A stretch of 64,000 nt of DNA from Octopus vulgaris. Its lineage: Eukaryota. How positions within the stretch are numbered: position 1 is the first letter of the stretch; every line of letters begins with the position of its first letter. Location: assembly GCA_951406725.2 (NCBI GenBank), contig OX597825.1, forward strand, positions 74,648,001 through 74,712,000, in the 5' to 3' direction. This document shows positions 6,985 to 57,430 of this stretch, piece after piece. The notes under the pieces are model-generated. The model was not told the origin of the DNA. It worked only from the letters and a program-made list of their open reading frames with translations, and ran no database searches. The position numbers and the translations under genes are program-made.

Positions 6985-7692
6985 AAACTCATCCGGGTTT
7001 TCAAGGCGTTTACGCTAAAATCATTTCCTGAACGGGACGCCAGTCCATTGCATGTTTAACCCCAAGATATCTCTGTTACTCCTTTTCAGCTTAGCGTACT
7101 GGAGCAACGTGAAACGAAGTCTTTTGTTTAAGGAAACAACGTGTCGCCATACTGGAGCAACGTGAAACGAAGTCTTTTGTTTAATGAAACAACGTGTCGC
7201 CATACTGGAGCAACGTGAAACGAAGTCTTTTGTTTAATGAAACAACGTGTCGCCATACTGGAGCAACGTGAAACGAAGTCTTTTGTTTAAGGAAACAACG
7301 TGTCGCCATACTGGGGCAACGTGAAACGAAGTCTTTTGTTTAAGGAAACAACGTGTCGCCATACTGGAGCAACGTGAAACGAAGTCTTTTGTTTAAGGAA
7401 ACAACGTGTCGCCATACTGGAGCAACGTGAAACGAAGTCTTTTGTTTAAGGGAACAACATGTCGCCATACTGGGGCAACGTGAAACGAAGTCTTTTGTTT
7501 AAGGAAACAACGTGTCGCCATACTGGGGCAACGTGAAACGAAGTCTTTTGTTTAAGGAAACAACGTGTCGCCATACTGGGGCAACGTGAAACGAAGTCTT
7601 TTGTTTAAGAAAACAACGCGTCGCCCGGTTCGAAAATCGAACCCACGACTTAACGATCATGTTCAGCACCCGTTAACAACTAGGCTACGCGC
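6985..7692 (-). mobile_element. SINE type C whose central domain is amplified into a minisatellite
   Basis: tRNA-like head at 7626-7692; GGGACGCCAGTCCAT tail at about 7033; the repeat unit matches the ACTGGAGCAACGTGAAA domain of other C copies. Confidence 0.8.
7098..7625. repeat. 53-bp minisatellite, 10 copies
   Basis: Unit ACTGGAGCAACGTGAAACGAAGTCTTTTGTTTAAGGAAACAACGTGTCGCCAT starts at 7098, 7151, 7204 ... 7575; no spacers. Confidence 0.97.
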
Positions 7693-8126
7693 TCTAAGAG
7701 CGTCACTTTATTTTTTAAATTCACTGACTAGCTAAGGAGTAGGGATGTGCGTGTTCACTGCACCTTCTAAATAGTCAGCTAAATTTCCCCCAAGTAACAC
7801 CACCCTTTTAGAAAATGAAGAACACATTGGATTTTATATAATTAGAAAATCCTTTCCATTTCTCCCTCAGACTTCGCGCATGGTTGAAAGAAAAGTACAG
7901 ACAAATGGACACAGCTGGAATGTCTGTGATTACATATTTCCTCATAGAAAGATGTCCAGTAAATAGATGGCCTCAAATTCACTGCTACTTTAAGCCTCAC
8001 TTCAATATATATATCACCCATTTCATATCGATTATATTTTTGTATCATTGGAATATATTTGAAATAATAGAATTTCTTTAGAGGAATATTCCTTTCTCGT
8101 TTAATAATCTTACACACACACACACA

Positions 8127-8192
<66 letters not shown>

Positions 8193-9662
8193 CATATACA
8201 CACAGAAACGTATGTGCGCATGTGTGTGAGCGTGTGTGTGTACGCGGGCGCGCGGGCGTGTGTGTGTATCTAATTGTGCTTGCATCTGACGCTCAATGAC
8301 GAACGGTTGTGTGAGTAAGAGCTTTTCTTCGCAACTACATATATTGAGGTTCGATCCCAACGGGCAGTATCTTGGGCTGGTGCCTGCTGCTATAGCCATA
8401 ACGTTGTCTGAACGCTTTCTGTAGTGCCAGAACATCACGAGTTATCTGTTTTGTCTCGTATTGTAATTATTGCACTACTTACTATAGTATATGAGCCAGC
8501 GACATTTTCGTCCCTAGAGTGATCTTTCTATCCGACAGTCTCCAACACAATACTTTGCAAATTACGAAATAAAGCTGCACTTTTAATGGTTATCGATACT
8601 TCTGTCAAGTGACGATAAGCAGATAAAAAAAAATAATGAGTTGATGCGAAATGACAGAAGTCAAGTCCCAAGACAGAACGACTTATTAATTGCAGAGTTT
8701 ATTATACTACCAGTCTAATATCAATATTCAGCGATCTTTCGACGATCTTTGATTTTTTTGTCTTTCAATTAATTCCTCGACTTACTAGTGCTTACTATGA
8801 GACAAACAAGAAAATGAAGACTAATGCAGCTTGATAGCTAACTCCTACATTAAATCAACATTCCAGTTAAGTGTTTGTTATTACCTCTTTCCTTGACAGA
8901 TACGATAGATTAATAATAATGCGTTGGGAGAAAACTGCATCAATTAAATTGATAAATTCATGTCTTCCTTCAAATTATCTGTCCAAACAAATATGATTTC
9001 TTTTACTGACACGAGTTTATTCACTTAGAGAAGTTGCTAATGGGGGAGATTAAGGAAGGCGTTTAATCGATTGAATTGACCGATCCATAACATCGTTTGC
9101 ATGCATTTGGTTAACCCTAGAGAGTTGACGACAGACAGAGAATAGAAACATGAATAAGTCGTTAATGGAGAAGGTAAAAGGAGGGAAAGACCAAATACAG
9201 TTGTTTTACAATCTATGTCAATTCACTAGCAATATTTTTTTAATGAAAGTGTGATATTTAAGCTTCATAATTATGCTTGATATTATAGATTGATATTCTA
9301 ACTTCATAAACTATGGACGCTGAATCCATCGTTCACAGCTGTTCTTATATTTAAACAACAAATAATAAATTTTCTGATGTATGCGAAGCTTTGCCAATAG
9401 TCACAGTGGTGCGATTTTCATACACGTTGTCTTCGAGAGAATTTCTCTTCCAGGGCACTTTTCGCAGAGAAGGTCTTTATACGTTTAAGTGAACACGAAA
9501 ATCTTAAATATGCACATATTTTAAACATTACTTCTTAGTGGGCCTCGGATTAATAAATTCCAACTTAAGAGAGCTTTTTCACGCATCACTAAATCTGTTA
9601 TTTAGTTCTGAAATTTAAGAATATCAGTTCTTATCAGGCTATGAACGACGGATTCAGTGTCT

Positions 9663-9703
9663 GCAGCTGATGAAGTGTAACGAAACAGAAACAAGTGTCC
9701 TAC
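9663..9703 (+). ncRNA. Degenerate minimal hammerhead ribozyme-like motif
   Basis: gcag-CTGATGA-AG-TGT..ACA-GAAA-CAAGTG-TC-ctac; stem I has one mismatch. Confidence 0.35.
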
Positions 9704-10311
9704 TGTCCGATGACACCATTCATCGCCCAGCTGAATATTTTCCCACAAATAATTTGTAACGAAATTTCTCTCTCAAGACAGTTTCCACAACAAACGTCAT
9801 TCCGTATTTGAATGAACACTAATATATTAAATATAATCGTGCACACCTATACTTTAAATATCATTAGTATACCTGTATTTTTAAACATCGACACAAACCT
9901 CGATACAAATTTTGTTCTCAATCGAGAATGAAAATGATATTGCGACATATGCTTAAAGAAAGTATGCATTTTTATAATGAAAATTATATAATTATATAAT
10001 GAATTATGTAATTAATGAATTATATGATTATTTAATTATATAATGAAAATTATATGATTATACATAATGTTGATAAAGAAGTACAGTATTACATTGGTTC
10101 TGTTATTCATTTGAATATTTTAAATTTATCTTCAATTTTATCCCTTTCGGGGCAATGAATGGCTCAAGTGTCTATAAGCTCGCTCTACATATTAGAAATA
10201 GCAAAGAAATCGCCTTCAAAGACATTCTGTCTTATCAAATGGACAGGTATTAGATATTTTCGTCTATTGGGTGTTGCAGCACGCCCAATACGACAAACAC
10301 CATGTAACATT

Positions 10312-10712
10312 GCTAAATAACAGTAACATTCGTTCTAACCAGGACTGCCACATTATGTTGGCAAATAATCTTTACTCTTTACTCTATTACTGAATGTTTC
10401 TCGTTGAGAGATTTAGAAATAATTTTTCTATTTATTAGATCAGTGTCTGTGTGTCACTTTAAAAATTGTAAATTTCGAATTAGAGTTTAGCAGTGCCATC
10501 TCTAGCCAAGCTAGCTGACGAAGGGAAATAACCCAGAAACCGCGGTACGCAGATACTGCTTTGTGCTGAGAGGGGACGTTAAACTCCTTTATTCGAAAAT
10601 AAGGATACGGATAGTGGGTCGTACAGTCAGCTGAAGACGATGTTTCCTGGGGCTAAATAACAGTAACATTCATCCTAACCAGGACTGCTACATTATGTTG
10701 ACAAATAATCTT

Positions 10713-10718
<6 letters not shown>
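10312..10718 (+). repeat. 67-bp direct repeats (10312-10378, 10652-10718) enclosing a hammerhead-like motif
   Basis: Four mismatches, exact 340-bp offset; CTGACGA-AGGG-aaataa-CCCA-GAAA-CCGCGG-TA at 10515-10547. Confidence 0.8.
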
Positions 10719-10756
<38 letters not shown>

Positions 10757-11011
10757 GTGTGTGTGTGTGCGTGTGAAAATTTATATCAACACAAAATTTT
10801 CAAGGTAATCTAAAATGGTGAAATTCTAACTGAATATCTAAAAACACGCTAACAAAAAGAAACATCAAACCAAATTTAACTTTAGACTTTCATTCAATCA
10901 AGAGCAACGTCATTGAATAACTGATTTGGTTTATGAAAATAAAATATTAAAAAATACCATACTAACTCGCTATTTTCTGACAATTTGAAATCTACATAAA
11001 GAAAAACCTAC

Positions 11012-11171
11012 AGGAGTGGCTGTGTGGTAAGTAGCTTGCTAACCAACTACATGGTTCCGGGTTCAGTCCCACTGCGCGGCATCTTGGGCAAGTGTCTTCT
11101 GCTATAGCCCCGGGCCGACCAATGCCTTGTGAGTGGATTTGGTAGACGGAAACTGAAAGAAGCCTGTCGTA

Positions 11172-11214
<43 letters not shown>

Positions 11215-11426
11215 TTGTGTGTCTGTGTTTGTCCCCCTAGCATTGCTTGACAGCCAATGCTGGTGTTTACGTCCCCGTCACTTAGCGGTTCGGCAAAATA
11301 GACCGATAGAATGAGTACTGGGCTTACAAAGAATAAGCCCCGGGGTCGATTTGCTCGACTAAAGGCGGTGATCCAGCATGGCCGAAGTCAAATGACTGAA
11401 ACAAGTAAAAAGAGTAAAAAGAGAGT
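11012..11426 (+). mobile_element. SINE type A, full length
   Basis: Near-identical to the reverse complement of 573-984. Confidence 0.92.
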
Positions 11427-11619
11427 AGTAAACAAGTATATTTATCTTCAAAAATTGATGTCAATGCATATTTAAAGAACAAAAACTTCAGACAAGAACT
11501 CTACGTTATGCTTCAAAGATAACCAAAGAATAAAAACTACAGATAATAATTCAACGTAATGCTTAATAGAAACTTACACACTTTACGTCACAATGATTGA
11601 TTACCCATTTATTTATTTA

Positions 11620-12180
11620 TTTATTTAATATAATAAACTCTTCTATAGGAATTAGTCTTATTTCATGATAACTGAAGCATTATTATATTCAACAGCATAT
11701 ACAACCACCGTGGGTCTTACTGGTTAATTAAAAAATAAAAATTACAGAAAAGACAACGAAATATCTATTTATTCAATATGATAAACTCTTATATAGGAAT
11801 TAACCTTATTATGTAATAAATGAAAAATATTATAATAAATAATAATATATATAAAATTATTGATGACTATGCTACATAACAAAAGAATAAAAATAACGCG
11901 TAAATACCTATTTATTTTATATTAGACCCTATTAAATGAATTAAGATTATTATATAATAATTGAAAAATTACTATAATTAATAATATATACAAGTCTTGA
12001 TGATCTCAGTGGATAATTAAAAGAATAAGAATTATAGATAAGAATTCTACATTATTCTTAATTAAAGCTTAGATACTTTACATCGCTATAACTAATTACT
12101 TACTCATTATATTAAGCACCTTAATAATAATAAACCTTATTATATAATGATTATTTAAAAGGCTACTATAATTAATAATT
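11620..12180. repeat. Degenerate AT-rich tandem repeat of about 145 bp, 3-4 copies
   Basis: TTTATTYAATATRATAAACTCTTMTATAGGAATTA at about 11622 and 11768; weaker copies at about 11911 and 12105. Confidence 0.55.
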
Positions 12181-12740
12181 GAAATATTTTAATGTCTTTC
12201 TAAATTTATGGCAACATTTTAATGTTAAGTGCCATTTAAAATTCAATAGAACTAATTTAGAAGTAATTATAAAATATATTTCTTCGAGGCAAAGATCACA
12301 AGTAGAATTATCAATGTTAAACAATTGTGCATAACTAAAAATGGACCACTTTAAATCATGTTTAACATTCTGATCCTTTAAATTCCAAATGCATTTAGTA
12401 AGATTAGTAGAATTACTTCTTCTATATTTAAAGGAATTAGGATGATTATAAAATCTAGGTTTCCACAAGTAGAAGAAGAACCAATATACCAATAATTACG
12501 ATGTCTAGTTATTACTTCACATTGATATACTATATTCTTCTTTAAAAACTGATTTTCTAAAGGGCATCGGTTTTGTCTACACAATTACACATTGATTTAT
12601 TCCCTTCTAAACTGCATTCATAGTTATAGGAATTTCTATTAGCGTATGTCTGTAAAATAAGTGTTAAGGTTGAATTATAATTATCATTATTATTAGAATT
12701 AATATTAATACAATACAAAAGACTAACTATAAAAAAGAGC
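12172..12740 (-). pseudogene. Penelope-like element GIY-YIG endonuclease remnant (Naiad-type pattern, inferred)
   Basis: Frameshifted CNCVDK/CPLENQ..IVYQCEV..YIGSS/KPRFYNH..SF..TNLTKCIWNLK..KWSI..CDLCLEE..LLN..KCCH, the PLE endonuclease motif order. Confidence 0.85.
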
Positions 12741-13175
12741 TTTGTTAAGTTACGTCGGAGCAGTGCGAGAAGGTAAAAAGCAAAAAGGAAAAGAAAACAA
12801 AACAAGCTTGCAGTTTTACTTCGTATTTCTATATTTAGGGGTTATGACCTCTTCTTCAGGACATCTGGAAAAAATCGATCGTTGGAAAAATCATTGCTCT
12901 TGATAAACCCCTGCCGCAAATGTTTAACGCGACTTCATTTTGTCCCTTATGCAACGCTCACAAACCAGATGTGACATTTTTTCATCTTCATTAATAGAGT
13001 ATGGGTTATATTTTCCATATCTACCATCTCTGGAGAGCACGTGTATTTAGATAACCATTCTCTAATCTAATATCCTATTACCTAATACCAAGCACGAATC
13101 AGATTGGTAAGATCGCCTGAAATGGATCTGTATCAAGGTATACTTTAATCGATATACACAGATATGTGTATATAA

Positions 13176-13249
<74 letters not shown>

Positions 13250-13565
13250 TATATATGTAGATATGTATACATATATATATATGTATGTATAGAATCGTCT
13301 GGAGATACAAAAATATTCCCAAGTTACGAAAGTACAAAATCTAGAATCATGAGATAATGATATAATCTACTAATTGATAAAACAATGTTTACTGAGACAT
13401 AATAAATTAGGTGTAGGTGACAAAAGACAATTAAGATTTTAATTATGTATCAAGTTTTTATGACACCTAGAGTAGATACTCTGCAATACCTGTTTATCGT
13501 TAATGGGCCGCTTGTGGTTTGAGGCAACTATATTTAGCCGGAATCGAAGTTAATGGATGTTTGTG

Positions 13566-13569
<4 letters not shown>

Positions 13570-13625
<56 letters not shown>

Positions 13626-13753
13626 TGTATGTATGTATGTATATGTATTTGTATCTGTATATATATATACAGATACAAATACATATACATACATACATAC
13701 ATACATACATACATACATACATACATACATGCATACATACATACATACATACA

Positions 13754-13790
<37 letters not shown>
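13570..13790. repeat. Palindromic (TATG)n/(CATA)n array with a non-repetitive self-complementary core
   Basis: TATTTGTATCTGTATATA|TATATACAGATACAAATA centred at 13663/13664. Confidence 0.9.
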
Positions 13791-13850
<60 letters not shown>

Positions 13851-15230
13851 AATTATTTTTTTTACTTAGCTAATAATAGGTAATAAAATTTCTGAAACAT
13901 AGGCACAACTGCATATAGAACAAGAGGAACTAGAATATGTTTATCTTCTATTGAGGTAGGTACAAAGTCATAAATATTAGAGGAGGAAGAGGAAGACCAG
14001 GTGGTGGTGAAAGAGGAAGAGGCAGTCGACGAGGAGGAGGACGATGAGGAGGAGAAAAAACGAGTGGAGACTAATTAAACGTTGTATAAAACTCAGTAAT
14101 TGTCTAGCTGTTCCCAAGCTAACAAGGGAAAGAGAGTTTAGTGGATAGATTCTCTACAAATAGCAGCCAAAGCTTCCACAAAACCATGCTCCATTGTCTT
14201 AAAAATAAATTCCAAATTGTACTTTACAGTGGCAAGAAACTCTCAAGAGAGCTGAACAGCACAACGTCTTCAGAGAAGAAACCCTTCTCAGGGAAGTGTT
14301 TCGGCCCTTAACTTCTTACATTTTCAGGGGACGGGTCGCATTCAGGTCATCACTACAGATTGCCCTTCTGCTGACACTCTTTAGCCAATTGGATATTGCA
14401 GACTTGTGCGTTTAAACTGTTTGGAGATTTTATAGAGTTGTAACTCTTCTCAAGTTAACTCAGCTTTCAAACTTATTACACTTAAAGAAGAAATAAACGT
14501 TAGTTGTCATGGAAGCGGTGAAACGTCAACGCTATCATAATGACACACTTAGAGTTACTTCCCTTGGCATTAAAATACAAAAAATATCGCCTTCAACCGA
14601 TATGGGAGTCGTTTTTGTTCGTCCCCGAAAAAAAGACCTCAATACACTACATAAGGAAAAACAAACGTGATAGTCTCTGAATGGCTAGAGAACTTCTGAT
14701 CAATGGCCTATTGTGTAAGAATTGAACTTATGCTAAACAAAATCGGGAACAACTAGGTATAGGTCTTTTGCAACACTTTTACACAAGTTCTGGCAACACT
14801 GCAGGTGTGTATCAAGATTATATTAAATATCAAAAAAATAATTATACTTCGATAAAAATTCATAGCTTGTAAGTAGTCATGCGCATAAATTTAAATAGTT
14901 GTTAGCAAGAATTAAATTTTGGGGAATAGCCCTTTAAAATGAATAAATTTACAATAATTACCATTTTCTTTCGTCTTCAAGGCAGGAAACCTAAATATTC
15001 TTTACTTACTTTTCTTCTTTTCAATTTAGATCTAAATTCATTTTCTGGATGTTGCGGGTCGAAGCTTATACCACGTGACGATTTCCTTCCTGTACCTACC
15101 TTTGCTGATAGGAGAGCTCCCGGCGAACTTCTCCATGTGGAAATCGAGTTCTGAACAATAATTGCATCGTATATTTTTAAAGTAAATCAATATTTACTTG
15201 CAAAAATATGTTTTGTAATACATAGAATCG

Positions 15231-15318
<88 letters not shown>

Positions 15319-15694
15319 GCATGTGTATGTGTATGTGAGTGTGTGTGTGTAAGTATGCATGTTTATACTATCATATATGTAAATATATATATGTAATATA
15401 TAACCGCTATAATAAGCGTAAACATATCTGTATATAAATGCCTAAACGTTTAATATATATTTATAATTAATGTTCATATATACATGCATAGATTTAAATA
15501 CATAATCACTCATAATTACTCATACACGTATGCAAACGCCATACGTTTGCGTGGCAGCTTATATTCTACATGTGTGTGTGTGTTTCTCTGTGTGTGTGTG
15601 TACAGGAGAACGTGTGTGCGCGCGCGTGCGTGTGTGGTGTATATATATATATATATATATATACGTGCGCTTGTGTATGTACGTGTATATGTAT

Positions 15695-15728
<34 letters not shown>

Positions 15729-16020
15729 ATACATATATATACATATATATATGTACAGATATATATGCATCAATATATATATATATATATGCGTGTGTGT
15801 GAGTGTTTGTGTGTGTACGTGTGTATGTATGCATTTATTTATATAAGCATATATGAATAATATGTGTAAACAAAGGTATATATATATATAAATGCCGTCT
15901 CAGTGGTTATAGGCACATCCGTATCCGTGTATACATATACACATGTATATATCCATAAGTATGTACACATATAAATATATACACACATGTATATATCCAT
16001 AAGTGTATACATATATATAT

Positions 16021-16118
<98 letters not shown>

Positions 16119-16852
16119 CGTGTCGTCTAAATGGATGTAGATAAACATCAACTTAAAAGTTAATGAAAATGTATTTTGTGTTCGTTTTTAATTTATGGTC
16201 TGCCGTGTCAAGTTAATGAAAAATAAAAATCTATGAATATAAACGTTAATAAAACTTACTTTCAGATATTGAATTTTTCTCCATACCTCCACATATGTAT
16301 ACACACACACAAACACATACACAAAATCACACACGCACACACACACACAAATACACACGCACGCACACGCATATACACACATGTACTTACATTACAGCTT
16401 AATTTCTTTTAAATGGTACTTACATCGGTATTTTCATTTTCATATCGACTAAGAACGAATAGAGTCTCCGTTGCTATTTTTGAGACGTTATATTGCATGA
16501 CCTCCAACTATCCCACCTCCCTCGCGGCCATTGCCGTCGTCACCACCAAATTTTGCTATTGGTAGTTTCTCATACTTACAGTTCCTTATGTAATGTAAAA
16601 TATATAATACCATATTGCGTATTAGGAGCTGTTTTCATATTTCGTTATAAATTTCATCCTTTAATGTATATTCTCTTTGTTTTTTGCTTTTATTTGGTGG
16701 GGGTCTTTTTCTTAGACATTTGTAATGTCTAGAATCCCCACCTGAGACGTATGAACGTTCTTTTTACTTTCGTTTTCTCTAATGTACAGGATCACTTGAC
16801 AAAGAAATAATATATATACGCGCATAGAGACAGATACACACAAATAGCTAGC

Positions 16853-16856
16853 TAGC

Positions 16857-16945
<89 letters not shown>

Positions 16946-16955
16946 GAATAGATGA

Positions 16956-17024
<69 letters not shown>

Positions 17025-17112
17025 CAAATAGACCGACAGGCACACTGATACATACATACATACATACACACATACATACACACACACACACACACATACA
17101 TACATACATACA

Positions 17113-17140
<28 letters not shown>
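16853..17140. repeat. (GATA)n plus (CATA)n/(CA)n compound microsatellite
   Basis: Direct reading. Confidence 0.95.
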
Positions 17141-17143
<3 letters not shown>

Positions 17144-17212
17144 CGCTTATCTTTTACTTGTTTCAGACATTCTGTTGCGGCCATTCTGATATACTACCAT
17201 TCTGATATACTA

Positions 17213-17340
17213 AGACAGAGGCAGATGAGGGAACAACAGACAAGATGGGTTAATTTGAGCTCAGGAAAAATGAAGAAGTCTCTGACGATTCGATCCTATG
17301 CTCTTCGACAGAAAATTGTTACTAAATCAAACAAGACTAG
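17213..17340 (-). mobile_element. Decayed PLE-type terminal fragment with a mutated hammerhead motif
   Basis: Minus strand tttCTGTCGA-A-GAGC-ata-GGATC-GAAT-CGTC-aga, resembling the intact motif at 47669-47703 and its downstream sequence. Confidence 0.5.
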
Positions 17341-17370
17341 CAAAAGAAGACATGAAGTTGAAAATGCATA

Positions 17371-17441
17371 TGGCGTAGTGGTTAAGAGCGCGGACTACTA
17401 ACCCTAAGATTCCGAGTTCGATTCCAGGCAGAGACCTGAAT

Positions 17442-17531
<90 letters not shown>

Positions 17532-17765
17532 AAGAAGAAGAAGAAGAAGAAGAAGAAGAAGAAGAAGAAGAAGAAGAAGAAGAAGAAGAAGAAGAAGAAG
17601 AAGAAGAAGAAGAAGAAACAACATCAAAAAATACCTTAGGAATGAGAACCCAGGTTCGAAATTTCCCCAAGACACCTGATGAAGGCTGGAGAGTATATCG
17701 GCCGAAACTTTGTGTTAACAACAAACAAGACAAGGACAAATACCCGTCAATTGTAAATAATGTAA
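17371..17765 (+). mobile_element. tRNA-headed short element with internal (AAT)n(AAG)n and a hammerhead-bearing tail
   Basis: A box TGGCGTAGTGG at 17371-17381, B box GAGTTCGATTCC at 17414-17425; hammerhead fold at 17671-17716. Confidence 0.7.
17671..17716 (+). ncRNA. Minimal type I hammerhead ribozyme motif
   Basis: Stem I GACAC/GTGTT, core CTGATGA, stem II GGCTGG/TCGGCC, GAAA, then CTTT (one change from the palindromic ACGT stem III). Confidence 0.7.
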
Positions 17766-18364
17766 ATTCTACTTAGTTTTAATAATATTTTCTGTCCATT
17801 TTCAACTTCATTCCTAACGTGAGTGTGTGTGTGTGTACGTGTGTGTGCGTGCGCAACGAAATCAGACGAAATATCTTAAATTATATTGTTCTAAAGATAA
17901 TGTTGAAGACATTTGTAGTATAGTCATAGAGTGAAAGTAATTTTGTCGAGAAATAGAGAGGACCAATGATAGTAGTCTCACGTAGTCCGAGAAAGACGGT
18001 TCTGCAATTTCTTGCTGAACCTGCGCGCCGGTGTGCATACACACGCACACAACAAGGTCTGAAGCAAACAAACGCGGTCTCCGTAACGGACTAAGTCGAA
18101 AGTCATTGAAAAGTTTGCGAGTAACAACAAGAGAGGTTTGACAAAAACAAGACAAATGACTTACTGTTTAACCAAATTAAACAAACAATTTATTAGTAAG
18201 TTGGATATTTTTAACCAATTGACTAATATTAAAAGAGTTTATTTCAACACACGAATTAACATAATGAATCTTGCAAACCAGATACAAAAACGACTCTGCA
18301 CAAACTATCTATTATCTGGTTTATTATCTAACATGTAATGTGCCATACATTAGCTCTCTTCCTC

Positions 18365-18550
18365 CATCAAATCGACGTTGCTTGAACCGGTGAACGGCTT
18401 GCCACACGTCAGATGTCGAAGTGATCGTAAAAACAACATGAGATGAAGTGTTTTGCTCAATAACACAGTGCACCACCCTGTCCAGGAATTGAACCCACGA
18501 TCTTGCAATCGTTAGTGCGACTCCTTAATCACTAAGTCATTCACCTTTAC
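18365..18550 (-). mobile_element. Degenerate SINE type C
   Basis: GAAGTGTTTTGCTCAA..AATTGAACCCACGATC..CCTTAATCACTAAG matches the C body and head. Confidence 0.7.
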
Positions 18551-18973
18551 ATGATGACCAATACCGTATGTTATATGCCATGAAGGATATGAATTTAACA
18601 TTCAACACCATCGGTGTAATGAGAATTAATTGCATCAAATTCACCAAACGAAACCCCTATGTTGCTAAGAAATTAAAGATTTCTGAAATCCTGTTTAAAC
18701 GGAGTTAAATACTGAAAATTGGGCATTACTGTGCGGCATCAAAACATTGTAGAACGAAATGTTCCTCCTGCAATCACAAAACACACTGGAAAATTCAAGG
18801 ATTAAATTCACAATTTGTGGCTGTATTATGTAAGTTTTGCCAAGATATCTCAATATGCACAATGTTGAGTCAGCATTTAAAAGAGTCCGCTTATATCTGT
18901 CATTCAAACATTCACGATTTCAAGGGTATCGACTTTGTTGTAGTGTTATATAATCATCATGACTACAGAACCA

Positions 18974-19190
<217 letters not shown>

Positions 19191-19915
19191 GAGAAACAGA
19201 GCAGCAGAAAGGGAGATCATAACTGAATGTTGAACAAGCGTTTGTAAAAATGTCGGTGATTGAAGACTTGCCAATCACTTTGGCGGACGTAACACTCTGG
19301 CTATTATCTGACATGTAAGATCGTGTGATTTATACCATAGATCTAAAATTTCATGCGCATAATAACTATGTAGATATTAAAGATAGTGGAGTGGCAGAAT
19401 CGTTAGAGCGTCGAACAAACCGCTTTGTGCGTATTTAGTTACAGTTCTTTGCATTCAGAGCTCATGCACCATTGAGGTCCGCTTATATCATTGTGGTTAT
19501 GCAAATCGGTCTAACTTATTTAGGAAAATCATGATATATATCGACGTAAATATCTGTTGACCATAAATCTCTCTTTCCCCAGTAATACAAAGTAGGGTGC
19601 CCAGTCACAGATAAAGGTCGTAGTCAGCCCACCCCTACTTTTTCTCTGTCCACAGAGAGACCAAAAGTTATTTGTTTACATTTGTCCACAGTTATTAGAT
19701 AATACATCAGAGCGAGGCTTGAAATTTGCAAAGTTTTTCATCCGACATTCCTTTCTATATATTTCGCTTTGGCAACAAACTTTGTTTAGTGACTCATTAA
19801 GTGTGTATATATATGTGTGTGTGAACGCGCGCGCGTGTGTGTGTATGTGCATTCTCGAGTATGTATGTATTTACATAGTTCTCCTTCCTGTCCCTCACTA
19901 TACATACATACATGC

Positions 19916-19969
<54 letters not shown>

Positions 19970-19970
19970 C

Positions 19971-20057
<87 letters not shown>

Positions 20058-25667: not shown

Positions 25668-26778
25668 GCGACTGGTTTTCGGGTGCGTCAAAAGCGGAAG
25701 AACTTCCCTGGGAGACGACGATGAGTAAACTGGAAGACCTGTCACGAGAATCACTCCTGGAAATGAGGAGAAAAATCATCAGTTTGTGCATGGGGATCAC
25801 CGGACGACAATCAATGACATTGCTGATGTTGTTGGCCTGTCGTCGTGTGGATCCGTGCAGGCAATTCTAATATCTGAATTGAACATGCGACGTGTCTTTG
25901 CCAAGTTTGTCCCCCACCTGCTGACCGCTGAGCAAGAAGAACATTGTGTCGAAGTCTGTCGAGATTTCCGTCAGCGTGTCGCTGATGACACATCTTTCAT
26001 GTCGAGGATCATCACTGTTGACGAGAGTTGGGTCTACAGGTTCGATCCTGAGACGAAGCAACAGTCATCACAATGGGAAAGCCCTTCATCTCCACGACAG
26101 AGCCGCAGCTCAATCAAGGGCATACTCATGGGTTTTTTTCGATATATATGATGTTGTGCATCGAGTATTCGTTCCCCAGAGCCAGGCTGTCGATCAAAAG
26201 GTTTTACTGCGACATTTTGGAGCGTTCGAGGGAGGACATTCGGCGAAGGCGACCGGATCTGTAGAGCGCAAAGAATTGGATTCTTCACAACGACATTGCA
26301 CCCTATCATTGAGCTTTCTCACGCGTGAGTTTCTTACCAAAAATAACGTGGCACCGCTTCCGCAACCGCCCTATTCGCCCTTCATTGCTTTCTCATTTGT
26401 CCGACATTAAGCAATATACGTGGATATTGCAAACATCTGATCGATTAGATACATTCTTCCGTGCTTATGAAACACTTCATAATAGCAATGGGAGTCATTT
26501 ATGTCTGCGGACTTTTATCTCTTTCCCAAGATGAAAATGCATCTGAAAGGTCGCCGTTTTAGCACTGTTGTCAGGATCAAGAGCGAATCGCAGAAGGTCC
26601 GCGATTCATTCACGGAAAATGACTTCCAAGCTGGATTCCAAAAGTGGCAACAACGCTGGGACCGGTGTATTGCCGTGCAAGGGGTCTATTTCGAAGGAGA
26701 TAGTATTAAAACTTAGGTGCATAAGTTATTTTTTCATTAAACATAACTAGTCCGGGAATTGTTTCACACCACATCGTA
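25668..26778 (+). pseudogene. Mariner transposase pseudogene (irritans-like, inferred), 5'-truncated, with right TIR
   Basis: KSGRTSL.DD, AKFVPHLLT, IITVDESWVY.FDPETKQQSSQW, WILHNDIAP.H, PPYSP, ADFYLFPKMK..LKGRRF, RWDRCIA.QG.YFEGD; stops and frameshifts; end TAGTCCGGGAATTGTTTCACACCACATCGTA. Confidence 0.93.
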
Positions 26779-47560: not shown

Positions 47561-47780
47561 ACATAGTTAATCCAAACATGAAAACACAAAGAGAAAACAC
47601 AACAACGTGAGAACGTGGAACAAGTATAGTGTTATTGGACGCCCAGGAAAGGAAAGAAAGAAAGGAGGATTTAACGTTTCGAGCAGAGCTCTTCGTCAGA
47701 AACATAGGAAAAGGAAATATCCAAGGAAGGGTAGACGGAGGAAAAAAAATCGCCAACGATACGCACGTGGTCACATTTTG

Positions 47781-55884: not shown

Positions 55885-57430
55885 TTGGAACACAAACAAG
55901 TGAAAGAACCGGTGGATTTCTTTGCCGCCTCACCTATAACCAGCGAGGCAGTTACGATGGATTACATCAACATTAATGAAGAAGTTATACTACTAGCCAT
56001 AGATGAGGTGGACGCAGACTCAACTGCTGGCCCTGATGGTTTCCCAGAAATCCTCCTCATATCATATAAGAAGTGCCCTGGAGAAACCACAACTGATTTT
56101 CTTCCAGAGTTTTCTTGCAAGTGGCAGGATGCCAAGCAAAGTGAAGGAAGGAATAATATGCCCAATCCATAATGGAGGAAGCAAAGCAGATGCCAAAAAC
56201 TATAGGCCTATCTCTCTGACTTCAAACATCAGCAAAGTCATAGAATGGATAGTCAGAGGCAAACTAATTGCATTCCTTGAAGAAATCGATTTGCTGAGTG
56301 ATACCCAGCATGGCTTTCGACCAGGTAGGAGCTGACTGACCCAGCTCCTACAGAACAATGTCTGGATGTTGAGGCAATTACTAAACAACCCAAATGGGGG
56401 ACGTAATATACTTTGATTTTGCAAAAGCTTTTGAGAAAGTGAAACATGGTATGACATTCCACAAACTGTGTGATCTCGGTATAGCTGGAAAACTTGGAGA
56501 GTGGTTACGTGACTTTCTGAAAGACAGAAGTCAGGCAGTAGTGGCCAATGGAGTCACCTCAAAGCAAACGCAAATAGTGAGGGGGTATTCCACAGGGCAC
56601 TGTCTTGGGACTACTGCTTTACATTATGGCCCTCTCAGATATGCCCTCAGTTTCCCGGATAGCCACCCTTGTTAGCTACGCAGACGATACGAAAGTGTCC
56701 CAGAAAATACAGAACCCCAGCGATGTTGCACACCTGCAGAAGGAGTTGGACTCAATTTACAGATAGGCTGAGGAAAATAACATGCAGTTTAATGCTGGAA
56801 AATTCCAAGCTCTGTGCTACCAGCACCAAAAACTGAATATAAAACTTACAGGGTACACTGGCCCACAGGGCATTACAATCCCAGAGCCTAAATCAGTGTA
56901 GGCCCTGGGTATCGACATGAGTGATGATACCTCTTTCTAAGTGCACCTTGCCAGGATGGCAATGTACAGACGATTGGCTGGATGGATCCTGAGAATGGGA
57001 CAGATATGCAGTAATATACAGCTGGAAGATCCTGGAAAGGATTGTACCAAATTTTGGTATTGAAAGCTACACAAATACCAGAACGGGTCACCACTCCACA
57101 GTGTCAATCCCAGCAATGCCATCGCGCTTCAAGACCAGTTAATGCAACAGCTTGGGTTTCAATGGCCCACAGCTTTTTAATATTCTCTCAAAGAGCCTGA
57201 GAGACCTACACAAAGTGGATGTAGGTGCTTTCGAATCAAACTTGAATCTTTTCCTGTCGACAGTCTCAGATGAATCTACCTTGTGGCAGGGGGTGCAAAT
57301 GAGGGTAGCGACATCAAACTCCCTTATTTACCAAATGCCACATATCAGAGAAGGACCTCAATAATAACAGTGTAGCAAAATGGTGGTGCCCCAGCATGGC
57401 CACATCTTTGAGCTGAAACTAATAAAACAT
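55885..57430 (+). pseudogene. CR1-group LINE reverse transcriptase and 3' end, decayed
   Basis: AGPDGFP, NYRPISLTS.ISKV.E, QHGFRPGRS, DVIYFDFAKAF, PQGTVLG, YADD at 56677-56688, NNMQFN..KF; stops and frameshifts; 3' tail at 57382-57427. Confidence 0.93.

Follow-up and report, generated by a model that had tools for sequence, protein, structure and literature searches.

A predicted solo pLTR in the octopus genome unites a tRNA-derived head and a minimal hammerhead

The copy in the window and its family

Within the window, by which we mean the whole 64-kb stretch of Octopus vulgaris DNA analysed here, there is a repeat copy on the plus strand consisting of a tRNA-derived head with A and B boxes, an (AAT)n(AAG)n spacer and a tail containing a minimal type I hammerhead (Table 1). 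The A and B boxes, the spacer, a second GGTTCGAA word, the hammerhead and the TGTAAATAA-type end all lie where the first-pass annotation of this DNA had placed them, and we take the A box to be a match to the type 2 Pol III promoter consensus. Homology to the family begins 5 bases 5' of 17371. The copy is a single arm that ends at the proximal of two 3' sites, without the ~25-30-nt extension seen in the family, an inverted partner or a clear target duplication. No second copy of the element was found within the 64-kb window, and Rfam and ARAGORN called neither the head nor the hammerhead. Elsewhere the window has a tandem array of 53-nt units that are 97-98% alike (6991-7731), a frame that presumably represents a fragment of a mariner transposase (25729-26410), and another that resembles, we assume, a fragment of a LINE RT (56003-56335).

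Table 1. Positions in the window of the parts of the repeat copy
Feature	Position	Strand	Remark
tRNA-derived pLTR head	17366..17436	+	Copy starts at family position +9, inside the range that holds the starts of most short copies
A box	17371..17381	+	Also family-wide
B box	17416..17425	+	32-mer around the box abundant in the genome
(AAT)n(AAG)n spacer	17437..17617 (repeat itself from about 17440)	+	Expanded in this copy
pLTR tail	17618..17767	+	Runs straight into the ORF in full-length elements
Candidate start codon ATG	17642..17644	+	Frame open through the hammerhead; the PLE ORF frame in ORF-bearing copies
Second GGTTCGAA word	17653..17660	+	Family-conserved; inside the open frame
Minimal type I hammerhead, PLE type	17671..17716	+	Predicted cut after 17711
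Hammerhead stem I	17671-17675/17712-17716	+	5 bp
Hammerhead core CTGATGA	17676-17682	+	Followed by an extra A at 17683
Hammerhead stem II	17684-17689/17698-17703	+	6 bp
Hammerhead GAAA	17704-17707	+	No stem III
9-nt TGTAAATAA repeats	17752..17767	+	Proximal of two family 3' end sites

The family is abundant. Exact 32-mers from the 3' half of the hammerhead, the B box and the sequence just before the head gave 2788, 972 and 505 matches, respectively, in the source genome (G000, 2.8 Gb), and the controls gave none. A homology search of the same genome returned more than 1200 candidates for the head and more than 1200 for the tail. Scaling by exact-match rates of 14/111, 4/65 and 17/43, with loci not de-duplicated, leads to very rough copy numbers of ~20,000 tails, 10,000-16,000 heads and 1,300 ORF ends. 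The copies of SINE size number very roughly 10,000-20,000 per genome, and copies of the ORF end are ~10-fold fewer than short copies.

It had been proposed that head and tail belong to one unit, and this is borne out by their linkage. The tail lies no more than 700 nt from the head in 157 of 181 distinct head-bearing arms, which, like our samples generally, came mostly from one contig and from searches limited to 30-40 loci. Twelve of the 24 unlinked arms have a LINE in the (AAT)n spacer (two of these being the query insertions themselves), one was missed by the filter and the remainder end at the spacer. In two cases the head was recovered 2.2-2.5 kb upstream, across the insert. No other body, such as a separate SINE with the same head would have, follows the head in any of the 181 arms. 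The length of the (AAT)n spacer is variable across the family, with a median of 38 nt and a range of 7-660. The LINEs inside the spacer bear an RT (L229:7442-9664, L232:6742-9221 and 10 further arms, one with a 630-aa open frame), and from their C-terminal motif we take them to be R4/Dong-like. R4/Dong LINEs target (TAA)n.

The tRNA derivation of the head, with its A and B boxes, is upheld. Out of 35 distinct tRNAs sampled from the source genome the closest is tRNA-Arg, with 49 of 75 positions identical (~65%); the margin is thin and the isotype is tentative. The octopus OR1 and OR2 SINEs derive from tRNA-Arg. The head does not form a tRNA cloverleaf, with a fold z-score of +1.4 and ARAGORN calls at 0 of 10 loci. 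Changed positions amount to 6.3% in the A boxes, 2.3% in the B boxes and 5.1% in the rest of the head. Conservation is thus only somewhat higher in the B boxes than in the head outside the boxes, and it is no higher in the A boxes.

A protein-coding parent element

The parent was found from the flanks of position-ordered copies, where the sequence upstream of some heads translates to the C-terminus of a Penelope-like element (PLE). In loci selected by a piece of this ORF, the ORF stop is followed by the tRNA-like head, (AAT)n and hammerhead in 29 of 30, two of the loci being near-duplicates. In most of 30 loci tail sequence lies ahead of the ORF, and the full-length elements L223 and L224 have it on both sides of the ORF. 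Thus ORF stop, head, (AAT)n, hammerhead and ORF start make up one repeating unit, and the extension present on some short copies is the beginning of the ORF region. The junction between ORF end and head is bridged by contigs of organisms B-E. No contig was found in organism F (run X21), which is not proof of absence.

The ORF carries an RT, as seen from matches to the RVT_1 domain. Pfam did not call GIY-YIG directly in the ORF, and its C-terminus aligns with the GIY-YIG domain of a relative (P0007) at 39% identity. The majority ORF has ~784 codons with one in-frame stop. By eye we see no CxxC linker (a Neptune-type Zn-finger) in the ORF, in which it differs from the Neptune-type family of the same genome, and no intron was identified in the element. 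A search for the parent by means of GIY-YIG had returned mostly Neptune-type families from the source genome, and the tail was present in 0 of those 30 loci.

On sequence grounds the stretch in the window is a solo pLTR of a protein-coding retrotransposon of Penelope/Poseidon type and not an independent SINE. The suggestion of a separate SINE with a borrowed PLE tail does not survive, for the whole unit, including the head, is the pLTR of the autonomous PLE. A SINE is a non-autonomous unit distinct from its partner, with which it has no more than a tail in common; here the unit lies within the autonomous element.

The tail may have a second role. The non-CpG variants that are commoner in the tail, at family positions 75, 114 and 126, leave the encoded residues unchanged when read in the frame opening at 17642, and this frame is also preserved through the 9-nt repeats. 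Together these suggest that the hammerhead region is also coding.

We then have to consider whether the short copies, although born as pLTRs, could now be Pol III source genes of their own that are mobilised in trans, that is, a PLE-dependent SINE. They are about tenfold commoner than the ORF-end copies, they possess the two promoter boxes as well as the two RT start sites, and they contain no TTTT. The head-start copies also looked less diverged (4.9% vs 6.4%), but this comparison is confounded by the way in which the loci were chosen. Among loci not chosen by likeness to the window copy there are no sequence variants private to the short copies; the tail variants are unlinked to one another and are shared between short and ORF-linked arms, and the main haplotype is found in 13 arms that are ORF-linked and in 26 that start at the head. 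The apparent restriction of two head variants to short copies was an artefact of picking loci by likeness to the window copy. In addition, the anole protein requires RNA extending ~55 nt past the distal start site, according to the available sections of PMC11167929, and solo copies lack this. Co-copied foreign flanking sequence was not noticed in any copy. We therefore regard mobilisation of the short copies in trans as unlikely.

Insertion ends and the hammerhead

An inverted partner is present in 18 of 27 position-ordered loci. Within these 18 inverted pairs the extension is found on one arm only in 15 and on both arms in none, and direct duplications of 8-13 nt are present in eight. The 3' ends gather at two sites (61 and 61 of 229), ~60 and ~85 bases downstream of the predicted cut site, and both sites lie a short way into the ORF. 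The position-ordered loci are single or inverted and not arranged in head-to-tail tandem, with partial tandems in L102 and L106 only. Two 3' end sites are the PLE 'tail' signature in the text available from PMC11167929, and inverted partners, duplications and this pattern of ends are described as signs of PLEs there and in 10.1101/2021.04.23.441226, so far as its accessible part extends. Copying by a Penelope-like RT, as first proposed, is therefore supported by the PLE-type inversions, the two 3' end sites and the RT in the parent ORF. A SINE would be mobilised by a LINE and have a simple-repeat or A tail; PLE-type ends and inversions are found instead. At one locus (L114) a 33-nt inverted duplication of flanking DNA, not a direct one, lies on both sides of the inverted pair.

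The identification of the hammerhead as a minimal PLE type is confirmed by its architecture. In common with the PLE minimal hammerheads in the part of PMC4209133 to which we refer, it has a short stem I, a long stem II, an extra base after A9 and a palindromic ACGU in place of stem III, and the motifs are mostly single and dispersed, with close pairs on opposite strands. From its sequence this ribozyme is of the ordinary PLE minimal type, and there appears to be nothing unusual in the hammerhead itself. The predicted stems I and II fold weakly better than shuffled sequences (z -1.4).

The helix III tetramer of the window copy is ACUU, which is not self-complementary, and that of the family is ACGU. 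The consensus GAAACGTT had been predicted for the family, and indeed G occupies the position in 93 of 138 tails and T, the letter in the window copy, in five. With ACTT the palindrome of ACGT is broken, so the hammerhead of the window copy is likely to be impaired, in agreement with the earlier view. A fully intact core is present in 46 of the 138 tails. Covariation in stem II had also been anticipated and was not seen within the family (138 tails); none is to be expected if the copies decay from a single source. The free N7 position is A in 14 of 138 tails, well above neighbouring transversions, and this excess is a hint that the source copies kept the hammerhead core. The core is changed at 3.2% of positions vs 4.8% elsewhere, a comparison confounded by base composition.

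If the copies were processed by their own ribozyme, as had been suggested, their DNA ends should be piled at the cut site. They are not: just one of 249 tail-internal or longer 5' starts falls at the base after it. Self-cleavage thus does not define the copies of this family. The anole element likewise has no ends at the ribozyme cut in the accessible text of PMC11167929.

Further hammerhead-like sequences were encountered. On the minus strand of the window (47672-47704) there is a second minimal hammerhead with an intact GAAACGTT, different stems, T-rich flanks and no tRNA head, which is likely to be a solo pLTR of another PLE family. A loose pattern scan gave CTGANGA...GAAAC words on the plus strand at 9662-9703 and 10510-10551, which may be chance occurrences or degenerate hammerheads. 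By eye, variant cores resembling hammerheads lie behind other PLE ORFs, TTGATAA..GAAACATG and CTGAAGA..GAAAGTAC (L066 and L085 at about 2150-2320 on the ORF strand, and the 3' UTRs of L064, L088 and L081).

5' ends, a candidate Pol III start and known systems

With the head's first G numbered +1, copies selected by the B box start at -1..+12 in 24 of 30 cases, inside the head in three and far into the ORF in three. Among arms that reach the start of the head, 39 of 45 stop within the 17 bases from -3 to +13, against 9% expected from the rate of stops within the head; this set includes partner arms and loci picked by the tail, the arms of one insertion are not independent and microhomology blurs the ends. 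There are two modes, at 0/+1 and at +7. The commonest single start is +7, the first base of the tRNA (12 of 39), and 17 of 39 starts lie 5' of it. In organisms C, D and E, too, no site gives more loose contig ends than the head start (80, 90 and 52 contigs, respectively), with position 2219 of L150 taken as +1 in that comparison. Two copies that abut unique flank, L263 from +5 and L264 from +10, extend 346 and 913 bases, respectively, into the ORF. An RNA that starts at the head is thus likely to continue into the ORF, and the 3' parts of these two copies could have been lost after insertion. A different picture is seen for the upstream pLTRs of copies containing the ORF start. Of those that reach the start of the head only two of eight stop there (Fisher P 0.0009), or two of six (P 0.01) without two deleted copies, from which we infer that the ORF-bearing copies use a different template from the short copies.

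Pol III starts 5-15 bases before an A box, and TTTT is its terminator. There is no TTTT in the 2464-nt majority sense strand. The expected number is 4.5 under a third-position model (P 0.006) and a mean of 2.65 under synonymous shuffles, the stricter test (P 0.036). In 47 real copies there are 14 such runs in 60,476 nt, or 0.23 per kb. In the Neptune-type family of the same genome, 1.8 kb contain 6-7 runs, the number expected from its shuffles. The sense strand is A-rich, and the deficit is modest. Unstranded RNA-seq reads from organism B gave no pile of starts or ends; 76-78% run into unlike sequence, and they come largely from copies inside other transcripts.

To our knowledge PLE transcription is known from one fly element. 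In Drosophila Penelope it starts inside the pLTR, and the promoter has been likened to TATA-less LINE promoters (PMC2377424, available part). As that element also starts within its pLTR, the pile of 5' ends in our family marks a start site and not an enzyme. The head might then be a captured relic of a tRNA that overlaps by chance the start site of an internal Pol II promoter. This would be a known type of PLE promoter and would provide for translation of the ORF, which is normally cap-dependent, and it fits with the lack of special conservation of the A box. However, the 5' ends lie 1-15 bases before the A box, in the Pol III start zone, and a deficit of TTTT would not be expected. Moreover, TATA, CCAAT and CRE-like words are absent from the end of this family and present in the Neptune-type family. 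We consider use of Pol II improbable.

The pile of ends might instead arise on a longer read-through RNA, by RNase P-like cutting at +7 or by fold-back of the RT at a GCCC/GGGC palindrome. The prominence of +7 would be consistent with the former, and perfect head-to-head palindromes centered on the GCCC/GGGC hairpin with the latter. Yet the head lacks a cloverleaf fold, nearly half of the starts are 5' of +7 and many copies start against unique flank with no partner. Structure would be expected to stall the RT on its 3' side, yet stops within the head are rare, and six of the eight upstream pLTRs pass the site. Processing or RT behaviour on longer RNA as the source of the pile is thus very unlikely.

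Most short copies begin at a tRNA-derived, promoter-like sequence, and we think it probable that the PLE RNA is initiated there by Pol III and that RT priming at the junction of the 5' pLTR and the ORF gives the SINE-sized copies. Pol III would start near the first G of the head in the 5' pLTR and, in the absence of TTTT, continue into the ORF. Priming at the 5' junction would copy only ~300 bases back to the 5' end of the RNA, generating SINE-sized inserts, and fold-back at a short palindrome at that end would give head-to-head pairs. Such fold-back may explain part of the two start modes. ORF-bearing copies would come from priming at the downstream junction on RNA that is tandem, or that has been cut by the hammerhead and circularised. 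Linear head-start RNA would therefore be the template of the short copies, and tandem or circular RNA that of the ORF-bearing copies. For its activity the hammerhead would need to dimerise or to be helped by protein.

A more far-reaching version is possible, although we advance it tentatively. The full ~2.7-kb coding RNA might be made by Pol III from a captured tRNA promoter, free of terminators, and its translation might be cap-independent, perhaps with a contribution from the hammerhead that overlaps the start of the ORF. The SINE-sized by-products could then be fossils of a step by which a SINE arises out of its partner element. Pol III processivity is stated to limit such RNAs to ~1.3 kb (PMC10886601, in the text available).

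The family has much in common with Penelope/Poseidon PLEs, as they are described in the accessible parts of PMC11167929 (anole Poseidon) and PMC2377424 (Drosophila virilis Penelope). They share an ORF with RT and C-terminal GIY-YIG, a partial-tandem pLTR, a hammerhead overlapping the ORF start, two 3' end sites with an optional extension, a truncated inverted partner, no ends at the ribozyme cut and a start inside the pLTR, the last being predicted in our family. What sets our family apart from those elements is that a tRNA-derived A/B-box head and an (AAT)n spacer form the beginning of the pLTR, that the head is where short copies start, that the sense strand lacks TTTT and that no intron was identified.

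Other systems have some of these parts. In the schistosome Sm-alpha and Sj-alpha repeats (review PMC6765202, part available) a Pol III-type promoter is likewise followed by a type I hammerhead, but these are non-coding tandem repeats released by cleavage, whereas ours are dispersed or inverted copies of the end of a coding element, and their ends are not set by cleavage. The TRIMp3 elements Cassandra, Helenus and Ajax also have a small-RNA-derived Pol III promoter or promoter-like sequence in a terminal repeat, proposed to have arisen by SINE insertion; they are non-autonomous LTR elements of 0.3-1.3 kb whose autonomous partners are expected to use Pol II (PMC10886601, same text), whereas the promoter-like head sits here in an autonomous element. 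Animal non-LTR retrozymes (10.64898/2026.07.22.740005; PMC7229834) are short hammerhead repeats from PLE pLTRs too, but they are defined as tandem repeats, which our family is not, and no tRNA head is described for them in the available portions of these sources. In giant squid 235 hammerheads were counted and not characterised (PMC6962438, accessible text), and the corresponding part of PMC13282606 mentions neither hammerhead nor ribozyme. In full-text searches of the literature, and in the available part of PMC3531059, we met neither a PLE pLTR with a tRNA-derived promoter nor an autonomous PLE transcribed by Pol III, and the family may be catalogued in Repbase or Dfam.

If Pol III is used, the family would provide a natural Pol III transcript that codes for protein, contrary to the expectation that autonomous elements depend on Pol II (PMC10886601, as above). 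It would also allow a direct test of whether translation without a cap can be linked to a hammerhead (compare PMC13725137, in the part accessible). The copies would map the 5' end of the RNA and both RT start sites in vivo, supporting the in vitro model of internal priming, and their ends would explain why solo pLTRs swamp full-length PLEs. Thousands of such copies would be mislabelled as SINEs in repeat annotations.

The Neptune-type PLE family used above for comparison (L067, L072 and others) is itself abundant. TGACGT and ATTGG words recur in its 3' UTR, where there is also a TATAAA. It has many intact frames of 781 aa with identical scores, and is therefore probably young.
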